Of a stretch of 64,000 nucleotides of DNA, positions 16,867 to 64,000 are shown piece by piece. Under the pieces are notes generated by a model. The model saw nothing but the letters and a program-made list of their open reading frames with translations, was not told where the DNA came from and made no database searches. This DNA is from Alphaproteobacteria bacterium. Lineage in GTDB: Bacteria > Pseudomonadota > Alphaproteobacteria > GCA-2746255. The DNA lies in assembly GCA_965249135.1 (NCBI GenBank), contig OZ252220.1, forward strand, positions 608,001-672,000, read 5' to 3'. The stretch's first letter is position 1; every line of letters starts with the position of its first letter. The translations under genes and the position numbers were made by a program.

Positions 16867-18015
16867 TCAGGGCCGCCAGTCCTTCAGGCGGCGGGCGGCT
16901 TTGGCAATCGTCTCGTGGGAGCCGGCGAAGGAAAAGCGGACATACCGATTGCCCTCGACGGGATCGAAGTCGATCCCGGGCGTCGCCGCAACCCCGGTCT
17001 CCTCCAGCATGCGGCGACAGAAACGTTCGCTGTCATCCGAAAATTTCGAGACGTCCGCATAAAGATAGAACGCACCATCCGCAGGTGCCAGCTTGTCGAA
17101 GCCCGCTTTCGGAAGCTCCTCCAGAAGCAGGTTGCGGTTCTTCGCATAGGCGGCGACGTAGGCGTCCAGCTCGTCCATGCAATCGAAGACACGAATCGCG
17201 CCATGCTGTGACAGGGTCGGCGGCGAAATGAAAATGTTCTGGGCCAGGCATTCGATCGAGCGCAGGAGCGATTCCGGCACTGCCATCCAGCCGACACGCC
17301 ATCCCGTCATCGAAAAATATTTCGAAAAACTGTTCACGACGATCGCTTCCGGATCGAAGGCAAGGGCGGTTGCGGCGGCTTCGCCGTAACTGATTCCGTG
17401 ATAGATCTCGTCCGACAGGAGGCGGATGCCGCTGCCCTTGCAGTAGGCCGCCAGCCGTTCAAGTTCGTCGCTTCTCAGCATCGTTCCGGTCGGATTCGAA
17501 GGGCTGGCGACGATCAGCCCATCGAGGCCGTCGCCATGGGGCTCAAGAAGTTCGACGGTCGGCTGAAAGCGGCTTTCCAGAGACGTCCGGATCGGCACCG
17601 GCTCGAGATCCAGCGCGACAAGGATGTTGCGATAAGCCGGATAGCTGGGCTCCATGATGCCGACCCGATCCCCAGGCTCGAACGCGCTCAAAAACGCCAA
17701 CAGAAACCCACCGGAGGCCCCCATCGTCACGACGATGCGCGATGGTGCCACGTCGAGGCCGTAGCGCACGCCGTAATAGGCCGCGATCCGCTCACGAAGG
17801 TGAGGCAGTCCAAGCGCTTCGGTATAGCCGAGCGGCTCGGAAACCAACGCCGCCTTCGCCGCCTCGATCACCGGCGTGGGCGCGCCGGTATCCGGTTGGC
17901 CGACTTCCAGATGCAGGACGTCTTCGCCGGCTGCCTCCCGTTCGTTCGCGGCGCGCAGCACATCCATCACGATGAAGGGCGGAATGGCGCCCCGTTTGGC
18001 GACCTTTAAGACCAC
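16867..18015 (-). CDS. class I/II PLP-dependent aminotransferase
   Basis: SPSNPTG, SDEIYH, NSFSKYFSMTGWRVG; conserved neighbour of rne; start GTG inferred. Confidence 0.92.
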   Translation of the reverse strand: MVLKVAKRGAIPPFIVMDVLRAANEREAAGEDVLHLEVGQPDTGAPTPVIEAAKAALVSEPLGYTEALGLPHLRERIAAYYGVRYGLDVAPSRIVVTMGASGGFLLAFLSAFEPGDRVGIMEPSYPAYRNILVALDLEPVPIRTSLESRFQPTVELLEPHGDGLDGLIVASPSNPTGTMLRSDELERLAAYCKGSGIRLLSDEIYHGISYGEAAATALAFDPEAIVVNSFSKYFSMTGWRVGWMAVPESLLRSIECLAQNIFISPPTLSQHGAIRVFDCMDELDAYVAAYAKNRNLLLEELPKAGFDKLAPADGAFYLYADVSKFSDDSERFCRRMLEETGVAATPGIDFDPVEGNRYVRFSFAGSHETIAKAARRLKDWRP

Positions 18016-18025
18016 GTTTCGACCT

Positions 18026-19795
18026 TTATTCCTTGGTCCGCAGACCGAAGCCAAAGCCACGCGGTTCGTTCTCGACCTCGCAGTTTTCCGGGCCCAGCCG
18101 AACGCCCTCGGCGCAGGAAATCGCGTTCACGTGACCGAGTGTTTCGATTGCCACTACCCGCTGTTCCCGCTCCAGCAGGCCACCGACCTGCACGCTGCCG
18201 ATCTTCTCCTCGACGGTAACGACGTCGGGAAGGCCGCCATGATGGACGCGCGGCGCCGCCAGGGCGTCGCTGAGATGTTGGCCGCCAAGCAATACCTCGG
18301 CCGCCACTTCGACGAGGGCGGAAACGGAATCGACGCCACCGGAAGGCGCGGCAAGAAAGACCGGTTCGGTGCGAATGTAGGCCGGTGCGCTTCCTTCCGC
18401 GTAATCCAGCGGATCCGCTCCCAGGGTTTCCAATAGCCAATCTTGCCTTTCATCTTCCGGAAGGCGTGTTTTTCCGATGTCGCGCATCACCAAAACCGGG
18501 GCAAGGGCAACGTCATGGCTGTTTTCGGTCGGCGCGGCGAAAAAGACGCCGGTGCCAGGGACGATCGCGGCCGTGCCAAAGGAACGATTCATCGTGTGGG
18601 AACAAACGACGGCAAGGCCCTTGCGATCGACGATCGCATAGCTTGTCGTTGCCCGATTGTCCGGGAAGGCAATCGGCGCAAAGGGAAGCCGTTCGACCGG
18701 CAAATGCCTTTGTGGATCAAAATCGTCCATCCAACCTTCCCGGCTGCCCTTCGTATTCGCGCCGGCAAAGGACCGCATGGCGATTTCGGCAAGCAAATGC
18801 GGCTTCTCTTCCGCCGAAGCCGCCGCATACCGATTTCCTTTCGTCAGCATTTCCCACATCCGAACGACGATGCGCCCGCCCGTGCTTCCAGCCGTATAGA
18901 GCGTTTCCTCGCCGTAGCCGACAGTAAGAGGCGGTCGCCATTTGGCGCGAAAGTCACCAAGTTGCGAATGGTCGACCAAACCACCCCGTGCGGCGGATGC
19001 GCTCGTCAGTTTCCTGGCAAGCGTGCCGCGATAGAAAGCGGTTGGGCCGAGTGTGCGGATATATTTAAGCGTGCTCGCAAGCTCGAACTGATGGAGCCGA
19101 TCGCCTTCGCCCAAAATCATTCCTTCGTAATTCGCAAGAAGGTGACGGGTCTCCATGTTGAGAAGCAGACGCCCGCTCTGCTCCTCCAGATCTTGCGCAA
19201 GCGCCTTGGAAATCCGGATCCCGTTTTTTGCGTATTCCTCCGCCGGCGCAACGAGATCGGCCCAGCTCTTGCCCCTGAACCGAAAATGAAGGGCTGCCAG
19301 CCCACCGACATTGCCGGGAACCAGACCGGCCTGGGAATCGTCGAGGCTGGAAAGTGGTTGCAGGAAGTCCAGGACGGCGACTTCCTGGTTTTCCCAGTCG
19401 TGAACAAGGCAGACGCCACCGCCACCGAGACTGGCCGCCGACGGATAGGTCACGGCAAGCGAGAAGTAGAGCGCAACGGCGGCATCGGCGGCCGTGCCAC
19501 CACCCGCAAGCACGTTCCTTGCCGCGAGCGTGGCAAGCGGCTCATCCGCGACGACGGCTCCGAAGAAGGTGTTATCGCCTCCAACCAAGATGCGCGGCGC
19601 CGCCACATCCCTCGACGTTTCCTTCGGTTTCTCGAATTGAGCCAGCCATTCCGGCGTCTGGCCGGTCCCGAATTCGCAGGCACCGAGCATCGTAAGCCCC
19701 AGAATCAGAAGGAGGATGCCATATTGACGCGGCCCATCCGCCCACCTACCTTGAGAATTGGGGGCTGGAGTTAGCCTATTGTTTTTTCGTTTCAT
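18026..19795 (-). CDS. gamma-glutamyltransferase-family lipoprotein
   Basis: GGTAADAAVA...SLGGGG, putative catalytic Thr in TTSYAIVD, APRVHH, lipobox LGAC; start uncertain. Confidence 0.8.
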   Translation of the reverse strand: MKRKNNRLTPAPNSQGRWADGPRQYGILLLILGLTMLGACEFGTGQTPEWLAQFEKPKETSRDVAAPRILVGGDNTFFGAVVADEPLATLAARNVLAGGGTAADAAVALYFSLAVTYPSAASLGGGGVCLVHDWENQEVAVLDFLQPLSSLDDSQAGLVPGNVGGLAALHFRFRGKSWADLVAPAEEYAKNGIRISKALAQDLEEQSGRLLLNMETRHLLANYEGMILGEGDRLHQFELASTLKYIRTLGPTAFYRGTLARKLTSASAARGGLVDHSQLGDFRAKWRPPLTVGYGEETLYTAGSTGGRIVVRMWEMLTKGNRYAAASAEEKPHLLAEIAMRSFAGANTKGSREGWMDDFDPQRHLPVERLPFAPIAFPDNRATTSYAIVDRKGLAVVCSHTMNRSFGTAAIVPGTGVFFAAPTENSHDVALAPVLVMRDIGKTRLPEDERQDWLLETLGADPLDYAEGSAPAYIRTEPVFLAAPSGGVDSVSALVEVAAEVLLGGQHLSDALAAPRVHHGGLPDVVTVEEKIGSVQVGGLLEREQRVVAIETLGHVNAISCAEGVRLGPENCEVENEPRGFGFGLRTKE

Positions 19796-21122
19796 CCGCT
19801 TCATTGCCGCGATTTTTTGCGTTGCCGGCCTATGGGCACAGGAGGCCCAGGCGCAGCGGCGCATTAGCCTTATCCGTGACGCCGAAATCGAAACTATCAT
19901 CCGCAATTGGGCTACGCCACTATTCGAAGCGGCGGAGCTGTATCCATCGGCCATCGGCATCCATCTGGTCGGCGATAAAAGCCTGAACGCATTCGTCGCC
20001 GGCGGCCAACACCTCTTTCTCAATACGGGACTCCTCACGCGGGCCGAAAACCCCGGCCAGGTGATCGGGGTCATCGCTCACGAAACCGGCCACATTTCGG
20101 GTGGCCATCTGACTCGCGGCCAAGAGGCGATGCAGCACGCTTCGACACAGATGATCCTCGCCGCCATCCTCGGCGTTGCCGTCGGCGTCGCAGGCGGTGG
20201 CGGAGACGCAACGATGGCTATCCTCGCCGGCGGAGGTGGGATCGCGACAAGCCAATTTCTGCATTTCAGCCGCGGCCAGGAAGCGTCCGCCGATCAGGCC
20301 GGCCTTTCCTATCTCGACGCAACGCACACCTCGGGGCGCGGGTTTCTCGAATTCCTGGAAATTCTTCAGCAACAAGACCTCCTGCGTTCGGACCGGCAGG
20401 ATGCGTATTTGCGAACCCACCCATTGACGCGCGATCGGGTTGAATTCGTCCGTCAGTACGTAAAGCAATCTCCAAACAGTGAGACACCACTCTCGCCGGA
20501 AATCACGCGCGATTTCCGCCGCATACAGGCGAAGCTCGTCGGCTTCATGGAACCTTTCCGGAATGTCATGAGGCTCTACCCGAGAGGCAATACCAGCCTG
20601 GATGCCCGCTACGCCCACGCCATCGCCTATTACCGGCGGGATGATCTTGAGCGCGCGTTGCCGCTTGTCGACGGCCTGATCAGGGAAGAGCCGGCCAATG
20701 CCTACTTCCACGAGCTACGCGGTCAGATGCTGTTCGAAAGCGGGCGCATCGTGGAATCGCTGCCGTCCTATAAAGAATCCGTTCGTTTGCAGCCGAAATC
20801 CGTCCTTTTGCGCGTGGGGCTTGCACGCGTGCAGCTTGAAACGGTGGACCCGGCGCAGAATCGTCCGGCCATGGAACATCTCCTTTACGCCGTTGGGCAG
20901 GAGCGGGACAATCCGCAAGTCTGGCACTTGCTTGCCATCGGGTACGGCCGCGAGCAATCCTATGGGATGAGTGCACTGGCCCTTGCCGAGCAGGCAATAA
21001 CCATCGGCGACAAAGAAACGGCCATCCAGCAGGCCCACCGTGCCCAAAAACTCTTGCCAAAAGGATCGTCCGGATGGGTCCGGGCCCAGGACATCAAGAT
21101 CATCACGAAGGGCCGACCATAG
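19779..21122 (+). CDS. M48 metalloprotease with TPR (BepA/YfgC-like)
   Basis: Signal peptide, LNAFV, HETGH zinc motif, EASAD, THP, TPR-like C-terminus. Confidence 0.92.
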   Translation: MFFRFIRFIAAIFCVAGLWAQEAQAQRRISLIRDAEIETIIRNWATPLFEAAELYPSAIGIHLVGDKSLNAFVAGGQHLFLNTGLLTRAENPGQVIGVIAHETGHISGGHLTRGQEAMQHASTQMILAAILGVAVGVAGGGGDATMAILAGGGGIATSQFLHFSRGQEASADQAGLSYLDATHTSGRGFLEFLEILQQQDLLRSDRQDAYLRTHPLTRDRVEFVRQYVKQSPNSETPLSPEITRDFRRIQAKLVGFMEPFRNVMRLYPRGNTSLDARYAHAIAYYRRDDLERALPLVDGLIREEPANAYFHELRGQMLFESGRIVESLPSYKESVRLQPKSVLLRVGLARVQLETVDPAQNRPAMEHLLYAVGQERDNPQVWHLLAIGYGREQSYGMSALALAEQAITIGDKETAIQQAHRAQKLLPKGSSGWVRAQDIKIITKGRP

Positions 21123-21125
21123 CGG

Positions 21126-21971
21126 ATGAACCCGACGCGCGGAAAGAACGGCTTAACCGGCGTGAATGAAAGCTCACAAGTCGCCTACCCCCTCTTCCTT
21201 CTTCGACCGTGGGCATTTTGCTCGGTTCTTTTCCTATCGCTTCTGCTGGGCGCCTGCGAATCAGGACCCGACCTGCCCAGCCCGGCACCGGAATTTGCCA
21301 AGGCCGGCCTCTCCGGAGATTGGATTCCCGATCCGAACGCAGGCGGACCGGAGGTCACCTTCACGAACAAGGAGGGGATCGCCGCCTTGAAATTAACGGC
21401 CAAGGGGGAACGCGCCTTCGTTGGCCGGAGGCTGGATTCGTCCTTGATGGCGGGCCCGTACCTGCGTTGGGCCTGGTACCTGGAGACGGCCTCCTATGTG
21501 GGGTCCGGCCGCCATCTTTCCGATGCGACGGCGCCGCCCAGAAACCCGCTTCGCCTACGAATCGCCTTCCGTGGCGGCCCGCGTGAGGAGGAAGGTGCGC
21601 CCGTCTCGCCCTGGACGGCCACCGGCGTGCCCACCCACGACCGGTTGCTTGACCTGGTCTGGGAATGGCAACCGGCCATCTCCACCCAAGGCGGCGGTTG
21701 GCGTCCGGTCGAGGGCGATGCGAACCGGGCGTCGGAAACCATCGCCGGCGGGGCGCATCCGGGGTGTTCCGTGCCTTGCATTCCCATTCAAAAACGGCTG
21801 GAGGATACCGGCCAGTGGTGGCTGGAAGCGGCCGACCTCGAAAAAATCTATCGCCGTTTTTGGCCAGAGGATTATCTAAGGGAAGTTCATGTCGTCTTCG
21901 TCGCGCTCGTGCTGGAACCCTCGCCGGTGCCGACGGTCGGCTACCTCGCCGATCTCGACTTCCACCGCTAA
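21126..21971 (+). CDS. hypothetical lipoprotein (DUF3047-like)
   Basis: Lipobox LLLGAC; PYLRWAW ... WWLEAADLEKIYRRFW pattern; 3 bp after the M48 stop codon. Confidence 0.6.
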   Translation: MNPTRGKNGLTGVNESSQVAYPLFLLRPWAFCSVLFLSLLLGACESGPDLPSPAPEFAKAGLSGDWIPDPNAGGPEVTFTNKEGIAALKLTAKGERAFVGRRLDSSLMAGPYLRWAWYLETASYVGSGRHLSDATAPPRNPLRLRIAFRGGPREEEGAPVSPWTATGVPTHDRLLDLVWEWQPAISTQGGGWRPVEGDANRASETIAGGAHPGCSVPCIPIQKRLEDTGQWWLEAADLEKIYRRFWPEDYLREVHVVFVALVLEPSPVPTVGYLADLDFHR

Positions 21972-21977
21972 GTCCGT

Positions 21978-23108
21978 TCAGATGTAATAGTCCTTCAATG
22001 GCGGAAGGCCATTGAATCCGACCGTCGAATAGGTCGTCGTGTAGGCGCCGGTCGCGAAGATCTCGACGCGATCGCCGATCGCAAGATCGAGGGGCAATTC
22101 GTAGCCGGCCTTCTCGTAAAGGATATCGACGCCATCGCAGGTAGGCCCCGCCAGGATGACCGGGCCGACCGGCCCCCCGTCGTGGGGCGTGCGGATGGCA
22201 TATTCGATCGCCTCTTCCATCGTCTCGGCCAGCCCACCAAACTTTCCGACGTCGAGATAGACCCACCGCACGTCATCCCGTTCGGACTTCTTCGCGATCA
22301 ACACGATCTCGCTTTGGATGATTCCGGCCGCCGCCACGATGTAGCGGCCGGGTTCAACCAGAAGTTCCGGAAGGCCTTCCGGGAAGTGTCGCGCCAGGGA
22401 CTCCTCGATCCCTTGCGTGTAACGTTCGATCGGCGGTACCTCCTTTCGGTAGTGAGCCGGAAAGCCCCCGCCCAGATTGAGCATTTTGAGCGAAACCCCA
22501 TCCGAGCGAAGCCGTTCGAAGAACTGCTTTGACGTCGCGATCGCCGCGTCCCACTGCTCGGGCTTCGTCTGTTGCGACCCCACATGGAACATCACGCCAT
22601 AGGGATCAAGGCCAAGCGCCTTAGCCTTGCGCATCAAATCGCAGGCCATATCGAAATCACAGCCGAATTTACGTGTAAGCGGCCAATCGGCGCCGCTTTC
22701 GGAAACCCATATCCGGCAACAGACTCGCGATCCCGGGGCTGCCTCGGCGATCTTCTCAAGCTCCGCTTGGCTGTCGAAGGCAAAAAGCCGAACGCCGAGA
22801 TCGAAGGCGGCGGCGATCTCCGGTCGCTTCTTGATCGTGCTGCCGTAAGAAATCCGCTCAGGTGCACCACCGGCATCGAGGGTGGCCCTGATTTCCAGGA
22901 CGCTCGCCGCGTCGAAGCCGGCGCCCAGGCCGGCCAGGACCGACAGGATCTCCGGCGCCGGATTCGCCTTCACCGCGTAGTAAATGCCCACCTTTGGCAA
23001 CAGCGTCGCAAGCGAGCGGTATTTCTCGGCGACGACGTCGAGGTCTACCACGAGGCAGGGTAAATCCGGCCGTTGTTCCGCAAGGAACCGGAAGATTTTC
23101 TCCGACAT
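21978..23108 (-). CDS. type III PLP ornithine/lysine decarboxylase
   Basis: YAVKAN (PLP Lys), FHVGSQ, NLGGGF, EPGRY, GPTCDGVD, GAYT. Confidence 0.93.
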   Translation of the reverse strand: MSEKIFRFLAEQRPDLPCLVVDLDVVAEKYRSLATLLPKVGIYYAVKANPAPEILSVLAGLGAGFDAASVLEIRATLDAGGAPERISYGSTIKKRPEIAAAFDLGVRLFAFDSQAELEKIAEAAPGSRVCCRIWVSESGADWPLTRKFGCDFDMACDLMRKAKALGLDPYGVMFHVGSQQTKPEQWDAAIATSKQFFERLRSDGVSLKMLNLGGGFPAHYRKEVPPIERYTQGIEESLARHFPEGLPELLVEPGRYIVAAAGIIQSEIVLIAKKSERDDVRWVYLDVGKFGGLAETMEEAIEYAIRTPHDGGPVGPVILAGPTCDGVDILYEKAGYELPLDLAIGDRVEIFATGAYTTTYSTVGFNGLPPLKDYYI

Positions 23109-23198
23109 GCACCGTCTCGCAGCTTAAGAAGCAGCAGCGAACGGCTTTTAATGAAATTGTGTCGTGATGCCAAGCAGGAATTCTGGCCGCGAGTTGGG

Positions 23199-23636
23199 CT
23201 AGAAGTGCACGGCCAGATAACGGATGCCGATGATGACGCCCGTGCCAAAAACGACGATACCGGTGGCCTTAAGAAAGACCATGAGATAGGCGCCCTGGAG
23301 GCTTTTCTTCTGCTTCTTCTCAGCCTCAACCCGGGCTACTTGTTTCTTCTGGGTCTTTTTCTTGGCGTCCTTGGCCTGCACTTCCGTGCGTATCTGTTTC
23401 TTGCGCTCAAGCGCATTCGCGTTCCCTTTGTCGACTTTCGTGCCGCGGAAGATGGTCCATGAATTCACACGTTGCGTCGCTTCATCGAAACTTTCTTCGA
23501 TGACCCGAACGGCACTATAGCGCGTACCTTCGTCGATCCGCCTGGCTTCCGACAACGCGAGGTCGCGGCTGTCGAAAATCGAATCGATCTTCCACTCACC
23601 GCTTACAAAGGTATGAATCTCATAACTAACAATCAT
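23199..23636 (-). CDS. hypothetical membrane-anchored protein
   Basis: Globular N-terminus, Lys-rich linker, single C-terminal TM helix; co-oriented with the PAS gene. Confidence 0.75.
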   Translation of the reverse strand: MIVSYEIHTFVSGEWKIDSIFDSRDLALSEARRIDEGTRYSAVRVIEESFDEATQRVNSWTIFRGTKVDKGNANALERKKQIRTEVQAKDAKKKTQKKQVARVEAEKKQKKSLQGAYLMVFLKATGIVVFGTGVIIGIRYLAVHF

Positions 23637-23660
23637 GCAGCATGACCCAACTAGCTATTT

Positions 23661-24167
23661 TCATTTCGATTTTGGATGTTTCAGATAGTTTGCTCCGCCA
23701 AGAATCAGCGAAATCGTCTCATTGTCGTCGCTTAACGGCAGCAGAATGCTTCGGCACAGCACGCCCTCGCCGTTGGTGTCTTTGAAGCTGTTTCCATAGG
23801 AAATGGGCACGCCCTTGCGTAGGATTTCGTCTCTATAAGAAGTCGCAACGTCAAGCAGGCTGTCCTTGCGAATCTCGGAGATGCGAAGGTTCACGCAAGG
23901 CTCGCCATAGCATTCGATAATTTCCTCGCCCACGTAGCGCAGAAGCGGATCTTTTGCATTCTCGCTTACGTCGAGCACGAAGCAGAAGGGCCACATGTCG
24001 GCGATATCGTCCGACCGCACGTCGTTCAACGAGGGATAATTCCGATCGTCCGTAATCCCCCGCCAGTAATCGAGCAGGCGAAGGACGAGCCGGCGCTCCT
24101 TTCCAGGACGACGCTCCGGCACCACCTGGTCCTGCGCTTCCTCCGGAATTTTCATTACTTCCGCCAC
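23661..24167 (-). CDS. stand-alone PAS domain protein (PAS_5/DUF1457-like)
   Basis: LLDYW...P...WPFCFVLD...RYVGE...ILLPLSDD...GGAN pattern. Confidence 0.8.
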   Translation of the reverse strand: MAEVMKIPEEAQDQVVPERRPGKERRLVLRLLDYWRGITDDRNYPSLNDVRSDDIADMWPFCFVLDVSENAKDPLLRYVGEEIIECYGEPCVNLRISEIRKDSLLDVATSYRDEILRKGVPISYGNSFKDTNGEGVLCRSILLPLSDDNETISLILGGANYLKHPKSK

Positions 24168-24189
24168 CTACTTCTCCTCTCCTGCCTGC

Positions 24190-24197
24190 TTAACCAT
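24190..24197. promoter_or_regulatory. CtrA half-site TTAACCAT
   Basis: Exact TTAACCAT 23 bp upstream of the PAS gene, flanked by TCCTGCCTGC direct repeats. Confidence 0.45.
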
Positions 24198-24349
24198 CCT
24201 GCCTGCGCGCCAGTCTCGGACTGCATGCGGATCTAAAGAGGCGCCCAAGGGTCGTAACCTTGCGTATTTATGGGACTTCCATGATTAAGAATCCGTAAAA
24301 CCGGCCGGCCCGGCCGGGCTAAAAAGGCCGGAAATGCTAGGAATAAAGG

Positions 24350-25372
24350 TTAAATCAGGCCGGCCAGCGGCGAGGAAGGGTCCGCGTAGCTCTTTTTTGC
24401 CATGCGCCCGGCAAGGTAGGCCAAGCGCCCGGATTCCACAGCCAGGCGCATGGCGTAAGCCATCCGAATGGGGTCCCCTGCCTCGGCGATCGCCGTATTC
24501 ATGAGGACCCCGTCGCAACCAAGCTCCATGGCAATCGTCGCGTCGGATGCCGTACCGACGCCGGCATCGACCAGGACGGGAACTTGGGATTGCTCATTGA
24601 TCAGACAAATGTTCACCCGGTTCTGGATGCCAAGCCCGGAACCGATGGGGGCGGCCAACGGCATGATGGCGGCGCATCCGATCTCTTCGAGGCGTTTCGC
24701 CATGATCGGGTCGTCGCTGCAATAGGCAAGCACCCAAAAATTCTCTTTCACCAGGGTCTCCGCTGCCTCAAGCGTTTCCACCATGTCCGGATAAAGGGTC
24801 TTCTTGTCGCCAAGCACCTCCAGCTTCACCATCTCCCAACCGCCCGCTTCGCGCGCGAGGCAAAGGGTACGAACGGCTTCTTCCGCCGTGTAACAACCAG
24901 CCGTATTCGGAAGGTAGGTGTATTTCTTCGGATCGACGTAATCGACGAGTCGCGGCGAGGATGCATCGGAAAGATTGACGCGCCGAACGGCAACCGTGAC
25001 GATTTCCGCACCCGAAGCCTCGATTGCCGCCGCCGTTTCTTCAAAATCCCGATATTTGCCGGTTCCGACAAGAAGCCGTGACGTGAATTGGCGGCTCGCC
25101 AATTCGAAACGGTCGTCATCCTCGACGGCAACGGCGCGGATTTTCGCTTCGTCCACCCCGCCGCCGATAAAGTGAACGATCTCGAACTGGTCGCCGTCGG
25201 CAACCATCGTTTCCCCATAGGCCGAACGGGGCACGACCGCCAGGTTATGTTCGACCGCCACCTTGCGAAGATCGATCGCAAGCCGCTCGAGAAGACCGGC
25301 CACGCTTAACGGCGCATCAAAGCGATGCGCTTCGCCATTCACCGTAACCTTGAGTGGGGAGCTTGCATCCAT
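24350..25372 (-). CDS. thiG: fused sulfur carrier ThiS / thiazole synthase ThiG
   Basis: ThiS domain ending EIVHFIGGG, in frame with [26 protein letters not shown]. Confidence 0.95.
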
Positions 25373-25540
25373 CCGTCTCGATCCTTGTCCGCCTCCAAAC
25401 CGAATATGGCGCGCCTTTCGGCCCGCTTCAACAAACAAGCCCTGAAAGCCATATTCGGTAGCCAGCAGAAGGCATTGCGCCTTTCGGCCCGCGTGCTATA
25501 ACCCCCTCAGCACGAGAATAGAAACGTGGAAGGCGTTGCG

Positions 25541-25999
25541 ATGCCCTCCCCCATCCTGATCCTCAACGGTCCGAATCTCAATTTGTTGGGGGAACGGGAG
25601 CCGGAAATCTATGGAACGGAGACCCTGGCCGACATCGAGGCCGCTGCCAAAGCGGCCGCCGGCGAGCTGGATTTTAACGTTGAGTTTCGGCAAACGAATG
25701 CGGAGGCCGAACTCGTCACCTGGATTCAGGAGGCGCGCGGAAAATATACCGGCATCATTCTCAATGCAGGCGCCTTTACCCATACTTCGGTCGCTATTTA
25801 TGATGCGCTGCTCTTATGCGATCAACCCGTGATCGAGGTGCATTTGTCGAACATCTTCCGCCGCGAACCGTTTCGCCACCACTCCTACGTCGCCCCGGCG
25901 GCGCAAGGTTTGATTTGTGGTTTTGGCGGACACGGTTATGTGCTTGCATTGCAGGCAATGGCAGGAATCTTGGACCGGGATGCGAAGTCGAAAAAATAG
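25541..25999 (+). CDS. aroQ: type II 3-dehydroquinate dehydratase
   Basis: LNGPNLNLLGEREPEIYG, EVHLSN. Confidence 0.97.
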   Translation: MPSPILILNGPNLNLLGEREPEIYGTETLADIEAAAKAAAGELDFNVEFRQTNAEAELVTWIQEARGKYTGIILNAGAFTHTSVAIYDALLLCDQPVIEVHLSNIFRREPFRHHSYVAPAAQGLICGFGGHGYVLALQAMAGILDRDAKSKK

Positions 26000-26420
26000 A
26001 CACGGGATCAATCCCGAAATCATCCGTGAACTCGTCGGCCTCTTGGACGAGCATGGGCTTACGGAACTCGAGTACGGGACCGGCGAGTGGCATGTCCGGG
26101 TCGCACGGGGAGGCGCTGGAAAGGCCGTGCAGGTGGAAGTCCAGGGGGCGAGCGAGCTATCCGGCACGAGCGCCCTTGCCGCCCAGCCCGGCGCCGTGAC
26201 GTCTCCGCTTGTCGGGACCGCTTTTCTCTCGCCCGAACCGGGAACGCCAAATTTTGTGAACGTGGGAGATACGGTGAAGGAGGGAGAAACCCTTTTACTC
26301 ATCGAAGCGATGAAGACGTTCAACCAGATTCGCGCCCCGCAGAACGGCAAGGTTGCTCAGATTCTGGTCGTAAACGGCCAGCCCATCGAGTACGGCGAGG
26401 TTCTGGTAGTGCTTGAATAG
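25980..26420 (+). CDS. accB: acetyl-CoA carboxylase biotin carboxyl carrier protein
   Basis: EAMK biotinylation site, SPLVGT; start approximate. Confidence 0.93.
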   Translation: MRSRKNRHGINPEIIRELVGLLDEHGLTELEYGTGEWHVRVARGGAGKAVQVEVQGASELSGTSALAAQPGAVTSPLVGTAFLSPEPGTPNFVNVGDTVKEGETLLLIEAMKTFNQIRAPQNGKVAQILVVNGQPIEYGEVLVVLE

Positions 26421-59444: not shown

Positions 59445-59978
59445 ATGAGAGTAGGGCAGATCGAAGGCAAACGATATTTGGCAATGTCTCCTCCTCACAC
59501 CGAAGATATGGCTTTTTCCCTGGAAGTGCTGGACGCGCAGGTGATTCCCATTGAACTGGGCGCGTCGCTGTTATCGGACAAGCGCCCATCCGCGAACGGC
59601 GACACCGCGAAGTCCCTTGAATTTGGTTTCCTATACCGGGATATCCCTTTCGGGGTGACGGCCCTTGCGCAAGGCTCTTCGTTTCACATGGTGCTTTCCG
59701 CTTATCTGGGCCTCATCCCCTACTCGGTCCAAGACCAGCCGTTGCGGGATGACATTGTTATGATTCTCGGCAGCGTCCCGTCACACAACCGTTTTCATTT
59801 CGAGGTCACGAACACCCAGCAGCTATTCCTGCAGGCGGAGCCAAGTTTGGAAATTCCGCACACCCCTATCCGCATCCTTGCCACCATCACGGCCTGTGTT
59901 CTCGAGGCGGATCTCTATCTGGATTGTTTGCTGGCGAAGCTTCGCGAGAGCGCGGCTCAGCTTGCCGCCGAAGGCTAA
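59445..59978 (+). CDS. hypothetical protein
   Basis: 177-aa ORF filling the psd-fcl gap; LGLIPYS motif; no recognisable catalytic motif. Confidence 0.65.
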   Translation: MRVGQIEGKRYLAMSPPHTEDMAFSLEVLDAQVIPIELGASLLSDKRPSANGDTAKSLEFGFLYRDIPFGVTALAQGSSFHMVLSAYLGLIPYSVQDQPLRDDIVMILGSVPSHNRFHFEVTNTQQLFLQAEPSLEIPHTPIRILATITACVLEADLYLDCLLAKLRESAAQLAAEG

Positions 59979-60946
59979 CTTTCCGTTTCCTTCAAGTACC
60001 ATTGATAGGTTTTACGCAAGCCCTCCTCCAGAGGTATCTTCGCCTGCCACCCCAATGCCTTGAGGCGTCGAACGTCCAAAAGCTTCCTGGGCGTTCCGTC
60101 CGGTTTGCTTGTGTCGTAGACGACGTCTCCTGAAAAGCCGACGACGTCGGCGATCCGTTTCGCCAAATCCGCGATCGTGACATCCTCACCCGTGCCAACA
60201 TTGATGTGTATCTTGTCGGAATAGACTTTCATCAGATGCACCAGCGCATCCGCCAGATCGTCGACGCAGAGAAACTCGCGGCGCGGCTTGCCGGTTCCCC
60301 ATATTTCGACGTTTGCGGCACCTTCGACCTTCGCCTTGTGCATCTTTGCGATCAACGCCGGAATGACGTGGCTCGAAAGAAGGTCGAAAGTATCGCCCTG
60401 GCCATAGAGGTTCGTCGGCATCACCGAGATGAAATCCGCGCCATGCTGGCGACGGTAGGCCTGCGCCATCTTGAGGCCCGCAATTTTTGCGACGGCGTAC
60501 CATTGATTCGTCGGTTCCAGCTGCCCCTCGAGCAGCGCTTCTTCCGGCATCGGCTGCGGGGCAAACTTCGGATAGATGCAGGAAGATCCAAGAAAAAGCA
60601 CCTTCTTCACGCCCACCTTGTAGGCAGTGTGCAGGACGTTCATTTCGATCGCAAGGTTGTCGTAGATGAAATCCGTCGGCCGCGTGTCGTTCGCCAAGAT
60701 GCCGCCGACATGCGCCGCGGCCATGAAAATCGCGTCCGGCTTCGCCTGTCCGAGCCAATCCTCGACCGCCGCCTGACGGATGAGGTCGAGATCGGCATGG
60801 GAAACGGTCAGGATCTCGCATTCTTCACCGGCCAGCCGGCGAACGATCGCCGAACCAACCATGCCGTGGTGACCCGCCACCCAAACCCGCCGTCCTTTCA
60901 GTGGAAAAGCTCGTCCGGTGCGGTCAATGCTTGCCCCTGGCGACAT
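59975..60946 (-). CDS. fcl: GDP-L-fucose synthase
   Basis: [43 protein letters not shown]. Confidence 0.96.
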
Positions 60947-61975
60947 TTTCTAGATCGGATTCGACCATTTCACGCACCAGCTGCGGGAAACCGATCCGAT
61001 GCTTCCAGCCAAGCCTTTCACGCGCCTTGGTTGGATCGCCCAGCAGGCTCTCCACCTCCGCCGGCCGGAAATAGCGGGGATCGATTTCGACCAGAACGTC
61101 GCCGTTCTTGGCGTCCGTGCCTTTTTCATCCACGCCCTTGCCCTTCCATACGATCTCCCGGCCGATATGCTGGAAGGCGAGTTCGACGAATTCCCGCACG
61201 CTATGTTGCTCGCCGGTTGCGAGTACGTAATCGTCCGGTTCCGTCTGCTGCAGGATGCGCCACATGCCTTCCACGTAATCCTTGGCATGGCCCCAGTCGC
61301 GCTTCGCATCCAGATTGCCGAGAAACAGCCGATCCTGCAGCCCATGATGGATGGCGGCGACGGCGCGGGTGATTTTTCGGGTGACGAAGGTTTCCCCTCG
61401 CGTCGGCCCTTCATGGTTGAAGAGGATCCCGTTCGATGCGTGAAAACCGTAAGCCTCGCGGTAGTTCACCGTGACCCAGTACGCGTAAAGCTTCGCTGCC
61501 CCGTAGGGGCTTCGCGGATAAAAAGGCGTCGTTTCCGTCTGGGGGGTCTCGATGGCCTTTCCGTAAAGCTCGGACGTCGAGGCCTGATAGTAACGGGTCC
61601 GATTTTCTAACCTGAGTATCCGCATCGCCTCCAACAGGCGAAGGGCGCCCAAGGCATCCGTGTTTGCCGTGTATTCCGGGGTTTCGAAACTTACCTGGAC
61701 GTGACTCTGAGCAGCTAAGTTGTATATCTCCGTCGGCTGGGTTTCCTGAACGAGACGAATCAGGCTCGTCGCGTCCCCCATGTCGCCATAGTGCAAGGCG
61801 AAGCGCACGTCCCGCCCGTGCGGATCCTGGTAGAGGTGATCGACCCGCCCGGTATTGAAGGAGGAAGACCGCCGTTTCACGCCGTGGACGACGTACCCCT
61901 TCTCAAAAAGCAGTTCGGCCAGATAGGCGCCTCCTGTCCGGTCGCCCCGGTAATCAGTGCAATCTTGTCCGCCAT
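60924..61975 (-). pseudogene. gmd: GDP-mannose 4,6-dehydratase with a 1-bp frameshift near the start
   Basis: [14 protein letters not shown] and [D]GAYLAELL are in different frames (one base missing at ~61931); the rest is intact ([28 protein letters not shown]). Confidence 0.85.
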
Positions 61976-62078
61976 GGCCCCCATTCCCATGGATTGGCAA
62001 GGTCTTCGCCCTGCCCTCCGTTAGCACGATTGCCCCGCATCGCGCCACGTTTTCCGTGTCGCCTTCCTTCATCCCGGC

Positions 62079-63451
62079 TTAGTCGTTTTTCCGTCCATAG
62101 TCGTCATCGAGACGAATGATGTCGTCCTCTCCAAGGTAGCTTCCCGATTGCACCTCGATCAGATGGAGCGGCTCCTCGCCGGCATTCTCCAGCCGGTGAA
62201 CGGTGCCCGGCGGGATGTAGGTCGATTCGTTTTTCCTAAGCAGAAAAGATTCCCCGCCTCGCGTCACGACCGCCGTGCCGCCCACGACAACCCAATGTTC
62301 GGCACGGTGACGGTGCTTCTGAAGGGAAAGTTTTTCGCCCGGCTTTACCGTGATTCGTTTTACCTGAAAGTGCTCACCCTGATCGATGGTTTCGAAACTG
62401 CCCCAAGGACGATACACCTTGGGATGCGATTCCGCCTCCCCGCGCCCTTCGGCCTTTAATTTCTCGACGATCGTCTTTACCTCTTGGGCACGATTGCGAT
62501 CGACGATAAGCACGGCATCGCTGGTGGCAATGACGACGATGTTCTCCACACCAAGGACTGCCACGAGCGGCCCTTCGCTTCGAAGGTAGGCGTTTTGAAC
62601 GTCCTTCGCGATCACGTCGCCGATTTTCACCGTGCCTTGCGCATCGGCCTTCTCAATCGCCTGCAAGGCCGTCCACGAGCCCACGTCGCTCCAACCCATG
62701 TCGGCGGGAACGACCACGGCGGCGGGCGTGTGCTCCATGACCGCATAATCGATGGAGATGGACGGCGATGCTTCGAATGCTTGCCTATCCAGCCTCAGAA
62801 ATCGAGGTCCGTGCTGGCGCCCTCGACGGCGGCCTGTGCCGCGGTGACGATCGCCGGCTGCAGGCGGTCGAGCTCCTCAAGGTAGCGATCGGCGCGGAAA
62901 AGAAACATGCCGCTGTTCCAGTACCTGTCCCCTGCCTCGATGAATTTTTCGGCGGTGGCAAGGTCCGGTTTTTCGACGAATCGGGAAACCTCAAAACAAC
63001 CCTTCGCCTCCTTCGATGGACTGCCACGCTGGATATAGCCATAGCCGGTCTCCGGCGCGGTCGGAACGATGCCGAAGGTGACGAGGCTGCCGGTCGCAGC
63101 CGCCGCCTTCCCGGTCGTGACCGCCGCAAGAAAGCGCTTCGGATCGCGAACCACGTGATCGGATGGAAGCACAAGAAGCAGCGTGCCCGGGTCCTGCTTC
63201 TTCGCGAGACAGGCCGCCACCGCCACGGCGGGTGCCGTGTTGCGCCCGTCTGGTTCCAGCACGAGCCGTGCCGGTTGGACGCCGACCAACTTTAGCTGCT
63301 CGGTGATCATGAAACGGTGGGCATCGTTGCTGATCACCAGCGGTGGCGCAAAAATCTTTTCATCGGCCACCCTTAGCGCCGTTTCCTGCAGCAGGCTGTG
63401 CTCACCCACCAGCGGATAAAGCTGTTTCGGATAAAGGGCCCTGGAAAGGGG
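62079..63451 (-). pseudogene. manC: mannose-1-phosphate guanylyltransferase/mannose-6-phosphate isomerase, 5'-truncated and frameshifted
   Basis: PLSRALYPKQ, RNTAPA, FVEKP, WNSGMF; frameshift at ~62797 (restores DFLRLDRQAF..SISIDYAVME); cupin RPWG, HRAEHW; N-terminal GGxGTRLW absent. Confidence 0.88.
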
Positions 63452-63461
63452 AGATATCACC

Positions 63462-63491
63462 TTGACTGAACAACGTGTCTGGCGGCATGAT
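63462..63491 (+). promoter_or_regulatory. putative sigma70 promoter
   Basis: TTGACT-N18-CATGAT, upstream of GAGGGG RBS and ATG. Confidence 0.4.
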
Positions 63492-63537
63492 ACCGTCTTT
63501 GATGCCCTACGGGATACCGGCGAGGGCAACGAGGGGT

Positions 63538-64000
63538 ATGTCATGGATCACGTCACGATCCAGCCTGAAGAACTGCTATGGAATAAAGGACCTCCAAAAG
63601 GACTTCGATTTTTCGAAGACGCGCGCCTATGCCCTATACGCGCCCAACGGTGTGATGAAGTCGTCTTTGGCCCAGACATTCCAAGACGCCGCTGATGACA
63701 AGGATTCTGAAGATCGTATCTTCAAAACGCGCAAGACTGTACGGAAGATCACAGACGAAGCGCGCCAGGACGTGGGCGGGTATCGCATACTGGTGGTGGC
63801 CCCTTATGACGAGCATCTCGGCCTCACGGAACAAACGTCTACTCTGCTTCTAGAACCAAGACTGAAGAAGGAGTTTGACGAATTGCTCCGCGCCACTGAA
63901 GAGGCCAAGGTGGCTCTTCTCAAGGCAATTCAAGCTCAATCGGGTTCCAAGAAGGATCTGGAAGTCGAGATATCGTCTGCGATCATGCCCACTAGCGTCG
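63538..64000 (+). CDS. ABC/SMC-like P-loop ATPase, N-terminal part (3'-partial)
   Basis: Frame 1 is open from ATG 63538 to the window end: ..LKNCYGIKDLQKDFDFSKTRAYALYAPNGVMKSSLAQTF..DRIF..; helical region follows; not in the ORF track because it has no stop in the window. Confidence 0.75.
   Translation, partial: MSWITSRSSLKNCYGIKDLQKDFDFSKTRAYALYAPNGVMKSSLAQTFQDAADDKDSEDRIFKTRKTVRKITDEARQDVGGYRILVVAPYDEHLGLTEQTSTLLLEPRLKKEFDELLRATEEAKVALLKAIQAQSGSKKDLEVEISSAIMPTSV

Follow-up and report, generated by a model that had tools for sequence, protein, structure and literature searches.

Introduction

In E. coli PrrC, the nuclease triad consists of R320/E324/H356, and RloC carries a CxxC zinc hook in its coiled-coil insert. 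The target duplication of the IS1595 family of insertion sequences (ISs) is 8 bp long, and Siguier, Gagnevin and Chandler are said to have described ISs of this family with passenger genes in 2009; Benler et al. reportedly described in 2021 larger transposons, for instance Tn7-like elements, with defence genes as cargo. An IS with a passenger gene is called a transporter IS (tIS, a term from PMC7986276). The PDC systems are 145 untested candidates whose defining feature is that they lie within BREX, DISARM or type I restriction systems (Payne et al., bioRxiv 10.1101/2024.01.29.577857). Here, we analysed a 64,000-nt stretch of an alphaproteobacterial genome (hereafter the window; positions 608,001 to 672,000 of contig OZ252220.1, assembly GCA_965249135.1, in our numbering G000:C1:608001-672000), at the right end of which an ATPase gene begins and continues into the adjoining DNA. 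We conclude that this gene likely encodes a full-length member of the PDC-S46 family, a candidate defence gene, and that it travels as the passenger of an IS1595-family tIS inserted in manC.

The locus shares with the known IS1595-family tIS a zinc-ribbon plus ISXO2-like DDE transposase, repeats of ~25 nt, a short target duplication and the presence of one passenger between the transposase and a repeat; it differs in that the passenger is a candidate immune gene, which recurs together with transposases that have diverged to 34-54% identity. Like Tn7-like elements with defence cargo it carries a candidate immune gene as transposon cargo, but with a single transposase and a single defence-candidate protein in 3.5 kb it is close to the minimum that such an element can have. 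With PDC-S46 as catalogued it has in common the full-length match to the hidden Markov model, the organization as a single gene and homologues that are often found beside restriction-modification systems, whereas the gene described here is IS cargo, lies outside any immune system and has a frameshifted start. Our literature search found no paper that names PDC-S46 and none on IS1595-family elements with candidate immune cargo; in the accessible part of a later experimental test, PDC-S46 is not among the eight candidates.

Results and discussion

A single IS1595-family element carries the ATPase gene into manC

The anatomy of the mobile element is shown by its sequence and by the empty sites in relatives. 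It is 3481 bp (3.48 kb) long and consists of a left terminal inverted repeat (IRL), the ATPase gene, an open reading frame (ORF) of 68 codons, a convergently oriented transposase gene and a right inverted repeat (IRR). The last 463 nt of the window form the 5′ part of the ATPase ORF, and the remainder was fetched as the continuation L002, in which a position equals the window position minus 60000. The transposase matches the Pfam families DDE_Tnp_IS1595 (PF12762, 2.3e-38, profile positions 5-153 of 153) and Zn_ribbon_IS1595 (PF12760, 3.2e-7) as well as the NCBIfam model transpos_IS1595 (NF033547, 3.8e-58, positions 1-215 of 215).

The insertion point lies within codons ~25-28 of manC. The missing manC N-terminus, ITPVLLSGGSGTRLWPLSR, is encoded beyond the far end of the element, and the ORF start at 63544 on the minus strand, which lies within the element, is spurious. 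A stretch of 13 nt, CCCTGGAAAGGGG, at 63439-63451 is repeated on both sides; it is longer than the target duplication because the element ends share GG/CCC with the target, and a duplication of 8 bp is possible if the element ends are set 2 nt inward. In two genomes of the same genus, G001 and G002, both flanks are contiguous, corresponding to the empty site, and G001 encodes an intact ManC of 507 aa. Because the repeats bracket all three genes and the flanks are contiguous in both relatives, the foreign segment is a single insertion sequence. On its far side the core genes, encoding an ABC-transport auxiliary protein, a permease, an ATPase and a sugar dehydrogenase, follow in the same order as in G001.

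The ATPase gene and the element are single-copy in this genome. None of 5 same-genus genomes (88-99% complete) yielded the gene, and of 55 other genomes of the same class 2 did. Its G+C content in 500-nt windows is 0.45-0.54, compared with 0.57-0.62 in the flanks, i.e., 10-15 points lower. The first-pass annotation of the window had proposed that a foreign segment starts here with the first gene of an island. The segment is foreign to this lineage, as the distribution of its ATPase gene indicates, yet it turned out to be one 3.48-kb element, after which manC and the core genes resume. The same annotation had quoted the encoded peptide correctly and had seen both the deviating composition and an ORF that runs off the window; the frame indeed stays open after 64000, and the 1-bp correction that it suggested near 63561 coincides with an extra C relative to the family's start codon (see below).

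The G+C content also varies within the element: it is 45-54% in the ATPase gene (L002 3501-5500) and, at 56-58%, near that of the host in the transposase gene (L002 6001-7000). The two genes travel together despite this difference. Two other IS1595-type transposase genes, with 67-70% DNA identity, are located at C1:181821-182169 (L004) and C1:2031779-2031965 (L005), both without the ATPase, as this is single-copy. The 68-codon ORF had no Pfam match. It is kept at the same place in the related loci L110 (76% identity over 68 aa), L133 and L112 and shows no homology to the small ORF that occupies this position in locus L020. A 14-residue match to it (86%) occurs at C1:2030634-2030675, about 1.1 kb from one of the IS1595-type transposase genes.

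The passenger is a PDC-S46 protein with a conserved unusual Walker A motif

Counted from ATG 63538, the ATPase ORF encodes 724 aa. The protein matches the PADLOC model PDLC05023 (PDC-S46) with an E value of 1.7e-256 and 851 bits, residues 9-723 aligning with positions 7-718 of the 719-position profile; far weaker PADLOC matches were obtained to PDC-S06, an ATPase-Toprim model, mad8 and AriA (0.0027). In Pfam, the match to SMC_N reached 23.8 bits, which is under the cut-off of 40, and no NCBIfam model came near its cut-off. When 50 members of the family were compared with Pfam at E<=0.01, SMC_N was matched by 46 and AAA_13 by 12, the protein described here not being among the latter; its SMC/Rad50-type ABC head is peripheral to AAA_13.

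The family is large. In a 90%-identity collection, 2883 of the 8000 candidates that were scored are relatives at E<=0.001, and the few that bear a name are annotated as 'phage infection protein', as 'AAA family ATPase' or as hypothetical. Among the 50%-identity cluster representatives, 1911 match at E<=1e-3 and 777 at E<=1e-30, nearly all of them ~720 aa long and aligned end-to-end, and in contigs from one genome per species a relative is encoded at 581 of 603 pattern hits. Relatives occur in Pseudomonadota, Acidobacteriota, Actinomycetota, Nitrospirota, Planctomycetota, Cyanobacteriota and other phyla. The protein displays the ABC motifs LSMGE (signature, G425), LIVVDD (Walker B, D455) and MTHN (H-loop, H488), which appear family-wide as LSxGE, hhhhDDxADSFD (Walker B region) and THN, together with YAPNGxMK[ST]S. 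The Walker A loop A-P-N-G-V-M-K-S does not follow the canonical GxxxxGK[ST]: a Met replaces the glycine before the Lys. This Met is found in 50/50 homologues down to 33% identity, with the Lys and the following Ser/Thr kept, and A35, P36, N37, G38, M40, K41, S42 and S43 are unchanged in 19/19 close homologues. Invariant in all 50 are Y34, N37, M40, K41, G425, D455 and H488 and, in the C-terminal third, R551, H573, K630, R638, H696, N698, E703 and D707; N552 and E555 are likewise invariant in the family. Because Y34, N37, M40 and K41 are invariant throughout, we regard the odd P-loop as a family-wide selected feature. An Asp follows Walker B where ABC ATPases usually have the catalytic Glu.

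An AlphaFold2 (AF2) model based on the 50-sequence alignment (predicted local distance difference test score, pLDDT, 87; predicted template modelling score, pTM, 0.70) shows an ABC head that is split by a helical insert (about residues 100-375, ~270 residues) and followed by an all-helical region (about 527-724, ~200 residues). The best Foldseek matches in the PDB are the heads of SMC, Rad50 and cohesin, the ATPase of the retrons Ec83/Eco7/IA, RecN and AriA (E 2e-6 to 1e-3), with a probability of 1.00 for the SMC and Rad50 heads. Motifs and fold thus bear out the initial description of an ABC/SMC-type ATPase with an atypical Walker A. The loop had been called degenerate; it is instead a conserved variant with no sign of decay. 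The proposal of an uncharacterised phage-defence ATPase stands insofar as the protein belongs to a catalogued and untested candidate family, PDC-S46, and falls insofar as the family is not an unknown one. Among the comparisons that had been offered with it, RloC/PrrC is the most apt.

Table 1 Coordinates of the element, the ATPase gene and the disrupted manC gene. Positions refer to the window unless L002 is given.
Feature	Position	Strand	Remarks
manC 3′ part, mannose-6-phosphate isomerase/cupin, in another frame	62079..62738	-	Pfam MannoseP_isomer 4.9e-55
manC nucleotidyl-transferase part, 5′ end cut by the insertion	62795..63449	-	Pfam NTP_transferase 3e-39, from profile position 14
Left target-duplication copy, core TGGAAA, 6-8 bp	63442..63449	.	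Direct repeat; empty-site alignment with G001 and G002
IRL, left terminal inverted repeat	63448..63472	+	25 nt, 20/25 positions match IRR
Putative promoter-like site, -35 TTGACT inside IRL, facing the ATPase gene	63462..63491	+	9/12 matches
PDC-S46-family ATPase gene, 5′ part	63538..64000	+	Continues past the window end to L002 5712 (window-equivalent 65712)
Usual family start ATG 63543 and extra C at 63560/61, which puts this ATG out of frame	63543..63561	+	
Walker A variant YAPNGVMKSS, residues 34-43, Met for the second glycine	63637..63666	+	
Small ORF, 68 codons	L002 5709-5915	+	Overlaps the ATPase stop by ATGA
Transposase, intact, 317 aa, IS1595-family	L002 5912-6865	-	
IRR, right inverted repeat	L002 6904-6928		25 nt
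Right target-duplication copy	L002 6929-6936		Followed by the first ~25 codons of manC

A frameshift at the start of this copy

In 112 of 131 readable homologue loci, the protein begins with a Met 9 residues ahead of [NHDS]CYG, in the pattern M-D-x-V-x-I-D-L-K-N-C-Y-G, and the homologue P0002, which is 97% identical, begins with MDHVTISLKNCYG. The corresponding ATG 63543 yields MDHVTI and then loses the frame at ATC-C-AGC. Another ATG, 63538, located 5 nt upstream, falls into the shifted frame and yields MSWITSRSSLKNCYG, so that the extra C changes the first nine residues and the upstream ATG restores the frame; GTG 63475 is a second in-frame start further upstream. A Shine-Dalgarno-like GAGGGG is spaced 7 nt from ATG 63543 and 2 nt from ATG 63538. 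Promoter and terminator scans were not above chance (4 promoter sites with 2.8 +/- 1.7 expected, 3 terminators with 4.3 +/- 2.2 expected).

Judged by the reading frame, the copy in this genome may be impaired, with somewhat less than an even chance in our estimate, as the extra C after codon 6 would force the use of the upstream ATG with its 2-nt Shine-Dalgarno spacing. Because ATG 63543 is out of frame and ATG 63538 is used, poor expression or an altered first strand of the protein is possible. A stricter version of this is that the gene is a dead passenger here, its expression abolished by the +1 frameshift and its ORF still open since the mutation is recent. This would be compatible with the family assignment, and we consider it a serious contender that falls somewhat short of an even chance. 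In its favour are the extra C itself, the unfavourable spacing of ATG 63538 and the second lesion that manC has suffered; yet the 715 remaining codons form an uninterrupted frame with 96-97% identity to the closest homologues that are intact, and ATG 63538 does restore the frame.

Contigs of the same sample bear on this question too. Four runs of one sample (X1-X4) cover the stretch in the form of contigs, which drop rare variants. The run X1 contains a 5955-nt contig that is identical to the window across the junction of manC and the element, including the extra C, and the contigs of X2-X4 over 63466-63690 are without one letter at 63560, so that copies lacking the extra letter dominate three runs of the sample. 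In X2-X4 the left end of the element has a depth of 13.6, 7.2 and 24.1, respectively, compared with 4.5, 2 and 2.5 for the manC flank (3-10 times deeper), and in contigs of 1.7-4.3 kb the match to the left repeat sets in at 63447/8, with other sequence ahead of it. In our reading, the same community probably contains the element also at different sites or in different hosts, most copies having the canonical start.

The 3′ part of manC is 72% identical to residues 263-478 of the intact ManC of G001. Besides the insertion there is a second lesion, a frame change between 62738 and 62800, near 62797: the 5′ ORF ends with ...TDLDF-stop, and homology (LRLDRQAFEAS...) resumes in the other frame. The insertion heads an operon on the minus strand (window 59975-63544) that consists of manC, the GDP-mannose 4,6-dehydratase gene gmd and a gene for an epimerase/reductase of GDP-fucose type. 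Loss of surface-sugar genes can itself change phage receptors.

The ATPase-transposase unit recurs, and most homologues stand alone

We compared 80 homologue loci from species genomes and 80 from metagenomes, the latter set being biased towards close relatives of this protein. In 11 of the 142 loci with >=500 nt of downstream sequence, 1 of 76 in the genome set and 10 of 66 in the metagenome set, the ATPase gene is followed after 193-272 nt by an oppositely oriented transposase gene; these transposases are 34-86% identical to the one described here. The species-genome case is L020, in which 255 nt separate the ATPase gene from a convergent IS1595 transposase gene, and L013 has IS1595 transposase fragments 1.6 kb away. 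Complete elements of 3463-3557 bp were delimited in L020, L164 and L117, each with its own repeats of 25-27 nt, which start with GGG and share a CTTGAC core, and with target duplications of 6-8 bp, the one in L020 being an exact 8-bp duplication (ATTGCAAT). The IRR of our element is shared with L110, L112 and L133, where similarity ends after ..TTCCC and unrelated flanks lie beyond. A FastTree phylogeny retained 137 of 161 ATPase rows; 24 rows with internal stops or <600 aa were dropped, including the transposase-linked L020, L102, L110 and L158. All 8 of the 8 linked rows retained fall into one well-supported subtree of 67 rows, with none among the other 70.

Homologues are also present on 29 of 72,556 plasmid records. 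When 612 neighbour ORFs from 81 loci were clustered all against all, the largest cluster (DUF2130) covered 6 loci only, and because of this small share we consider the ATPase a stand-alone gene. The Pfam names of 201 ORFs (>=150 aa, within 1.5 kb, 80 genome loci) were sorted by hand. Among the 30 loci that had a restriction-modification, other defence or mobile gene within this distance, 12 had restriction-modification names and 16 had transposase, integrase, relaxase, conjugation or replication names; in L025, L035, L060 and L062 the homologue lies beside HsdM, HsdR or HsdS.

The DUF2130 protein (350-500 aa) adjoins the ATPase gene in L022, L041, L044, L045, L073 and L075 (6/80), three of which also have type II/III restriction genes. 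This protein may be a partner in some cases, or a further candidate of the embedded kind. The ATPases of L079 (Kocuria carniphila) and L080 (Ornithinimicrobium sp.) are almost identical, with branch lengths of 0 and 0.0015, and have the same 221-aa neighbour ORF in the same position, a near-identity that points to a probably very recent horizontal transfer. A second accessory locus of the same genome lies outside the window at G000:C1:~17771-26200 (L101 2771-11196). It comprises a PglX-like type II methyltransferase gene (594 aa), a TrwC relaxase/helicase gene (978 aa) on the other strand and a gene for a 794-aa AAA_13 ATPase (PADLOC PDC-S06, 5.6e-66), the C-terminal part of which weakly matches the PrrC model.

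These contexts bear on what the protein might do other than act against phages. It could act on other mobile DNA, such as plasmids or rival transposons, or serve as an addiction/toxin module that stabilises the element. Among the proteins of similar fold are SMC-type systems with DNA as their target, the gene rides a selfish element, some homologues adjoin relaxase, conjugation or replication genes (L027, L032, L040 and L061), and there are the plasmid-borne homologues; we nevertheless find this improbable, as no conserved antitoxin-like partner exists (the largest neighbour cluster is that of 6/81 loci, and the 68-codon ORF is restricted to the closest elements) and as the family is defined via embedding in BREX, DISARM or type I restriction systems. 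The observations fit anti-phage and anti-plasmid activity alike.

Very improbable, in our view, is a role as an accessory transposition protein, a target-selection or immunity ATPase like IstB, TnsC or MuB. The fixed position and orientation of the ATPase gene relative to the transposase gene, maintained at all 11 linked loci in spite of the divergence of the transposases, would fit such a role, as would the fact that the ATPase is the only large passenger in 4/4 complete elements. However, 131 of the 142 homologue loci have no adjoining IS1595 transposase and many lie beside restriction-modification and other defence genes, and the two other IS1595-type transposase genes of this genome lack such an ATPase. 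To our knowledge, IS1595-family elements transpose with the transposase alone. A housekeeping repair or chromosome-maintenance protein of SMC/RecN/RecF/SbcC type, which the first-pass annotation had kept in view, can practically be dismissed: the weak SMC_N match and the SMC and Rad50 heads among the best fold matches would agree with it, but it is refuted by distribution and context, with a recF score of 16.7 bits against a cut-off of 172, a gene that the same-genus genomes and nearly all of the same-class genomes lack, its place in an insertion sequence whose target site is empty in relatives, and a G+C content well under that of the flanks.

A possible mode of action and its likeness to PrrC and RloC

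We slightly favour the view that the PDC-S46 protein is a self-contained anti-phage module of the abortive-infection type. That it works like PrrC/RloC is a more tentative idea, and we would put it at clearly less than even. In such a mechanism the ATPase head would serve as a switch or sensor that depends on nucleotide, and the C-terminal region, a putative HEPN-like RNase, would cleave tRNA or another RNA once triggered. The candidate catalytic residues would be R551-N552-x-x-E555...H573, in a PrrC-triad-like layout, and a second HEPN-like module might contain the invariant K630, R638, H696 and N698.

The comparison with PrrC used five proteins, the matches of the PADLOC PrrC model in 5 of 401 same-class genomes. 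Aligned with these by hhalign, the family profile gave a probability of 80% (E 1.4e-5, 121 columns), colinear from Walker B via the THN H-loop to FLRNIVEMT in the family and LLRNLYEKT in PrrC, a segment of PrrC which we take to be the carrier of the Arg and Glu of the nuclease triad. In this full-length comparison R551-N552-x-x-E555 aligns with the PrrC segment, and H573 does not align. An earlier candidate triad, R638-x3-E642...H696, was dropped, as R551-x3-E555...H573 fits real PrrC sequences better. Residues 700-713 (FMYEPIVDMSDDHL), the most conserved C-terminal motif, resembled a PrrC Walker B/D-loop stretch (FIDDPVSSLDENHL) in the failed profile comparison described below, probably by chance.

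Taken together, the likeness to PrrC/RloC consists of an ABC head with DDxxxS[FL]D after Walker B and with THN, then L-R-N-x-x-E-x-T at similar spacing and a later conserved His, to which the AAA_13 relation of some family members and, for RloC, the long helical insert in the head can be added. The differences are as follows: PrrC has a canonical GTGKT where the PDC-S46 protein has its Met-substituted Walker A, the insert (residues 100-375) lacks the CxxC of RloC, the PDC-S46 protein has an extra C-terminal module of ~120 residues, and the neighbours here are a transposase gene and manC rather than a type I restriction operon. Because the C-terminal profile fails and neither R-x4-6-H nor CxxC is present, we say that the protein may work like PrrC/RloC and do not call it a member of that family. 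An ABC head with a helical insert is also shared with Septu PtuA, the retrons Ec83 and Eco7 and PARIS AriA (9e8z_C, 9n6b_A, 9kjz_C and 8v46_C); these have a separate nuclease or effector, whereas the C-terminal domain is fused here and no conserved partner gene exists.

Several results weigh against a defence role of this kind, or against parts of the argument for it. For the C-terminal region, the 205 residues modelled alone gave a confident structure (pLDDT 88, pTM 0.87), for which Foldseek found no PDB match at E<=0.001. In favour of a HEPN-like fold, a VIA-align comparison of this model with 48,161 chains placed HEPN domains on top, with sacsin 3o10_A at Z 6.4 (root-mean-square deviation 3.5, 111 aligned), AF_0298 2hsb_A at 5.8 and the HEPN-MNT toxin 7ae2_A at 5.6, the best rows spanning Z 5.0-6.4 and thus lying in the range below about 13 that helical bundles commonly reach by chance. 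Csm6 followed with Z 5.5, and AbiA, RnlA, LsoA and HepS were lower; 6 of 50 rows are HEPN by title, and 8 more (Csm6, Cas13bt, LsoA and HepS) presumably have HEPN nuclease domains. The canonical HEPN motif R-x4-6-H is absent, there being no conserved His 5-7 residues past the invariant R551 or R638. In a sequence search of the PDB, the C-terminal profile had 0 matches at E<=10 and the full profile two irrelevant ones at E 0.5-0.7, and a search of the ESM Atlas with residues 525-724 gave no usable match. Compared alone with PrrC, the C-terminal profile reached an hhalign probability of 0.25%, and no PrrC or RloC model was among the PADLOC matches at E<=1. Judging from the Met in Walker A and the Asp in place of Glu, ATP hydrolysis by the head may be in doubt. 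The association with restriction-modification, other defence or mobile genes, 30 of 80 loci with 13 further loci ambiguous, is a raw count without background control. Inside the 67-row subtree, the linked rows require >=6 changes, and 64 of 500 label shuffles give a result that is just as good. Rows scattered in this way do not demonstrate one long-lived lineage of the element; either the transposase has been lost repeatedly or capture has occurred more than once. Finally, X1 may be the assembly's own data, and the contigs do not settle the form of the gene in the host. A two-copy complex prediction of the C-terminal domain (score 0.19, mark 0.42) carries no weight either way.

The most far-reaching version of the defence reading is that these elements are minimal self-mobilising immune units, in which an IS1595-type transposase and an ATP-gated RNase of PrrC-like type, formed by one protein with a Met-substituted P-loop, would have travelled together through long divergence as a 3.5-kb transposon. 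The cargo would protect the host and thereby pay for the spread of the element, and insertion into surface-polysaccharide genes such as manC may in addition remove a phage receptor. As a whole we hold this to be unlikely.

Conclusions

What is new here is the mobile-element context of a PDC-S46 gene. For the annotation of this genome, the result is that manC, which heads a GDP-mannose/GDP-fucose operon, is a pseudogene disrupted by the insertion. PDC-S46 ranks among the larger untested candidate defence families, and its P-loop breaks the textbook rule in every member, which makes the family a good test of how an ABC head whose Walker A glycine is replaced by Met behaves towards nucleotide. 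The subset of the family that forms the sole cargo of a 3.5-kb insertion sequence is a natural compact unit with which both transposition and protection can be studied, and the locus described here provides a concrete case of a candidate immune gene that spreads by a simple IS and not by an island, a plasmid or a prophage.

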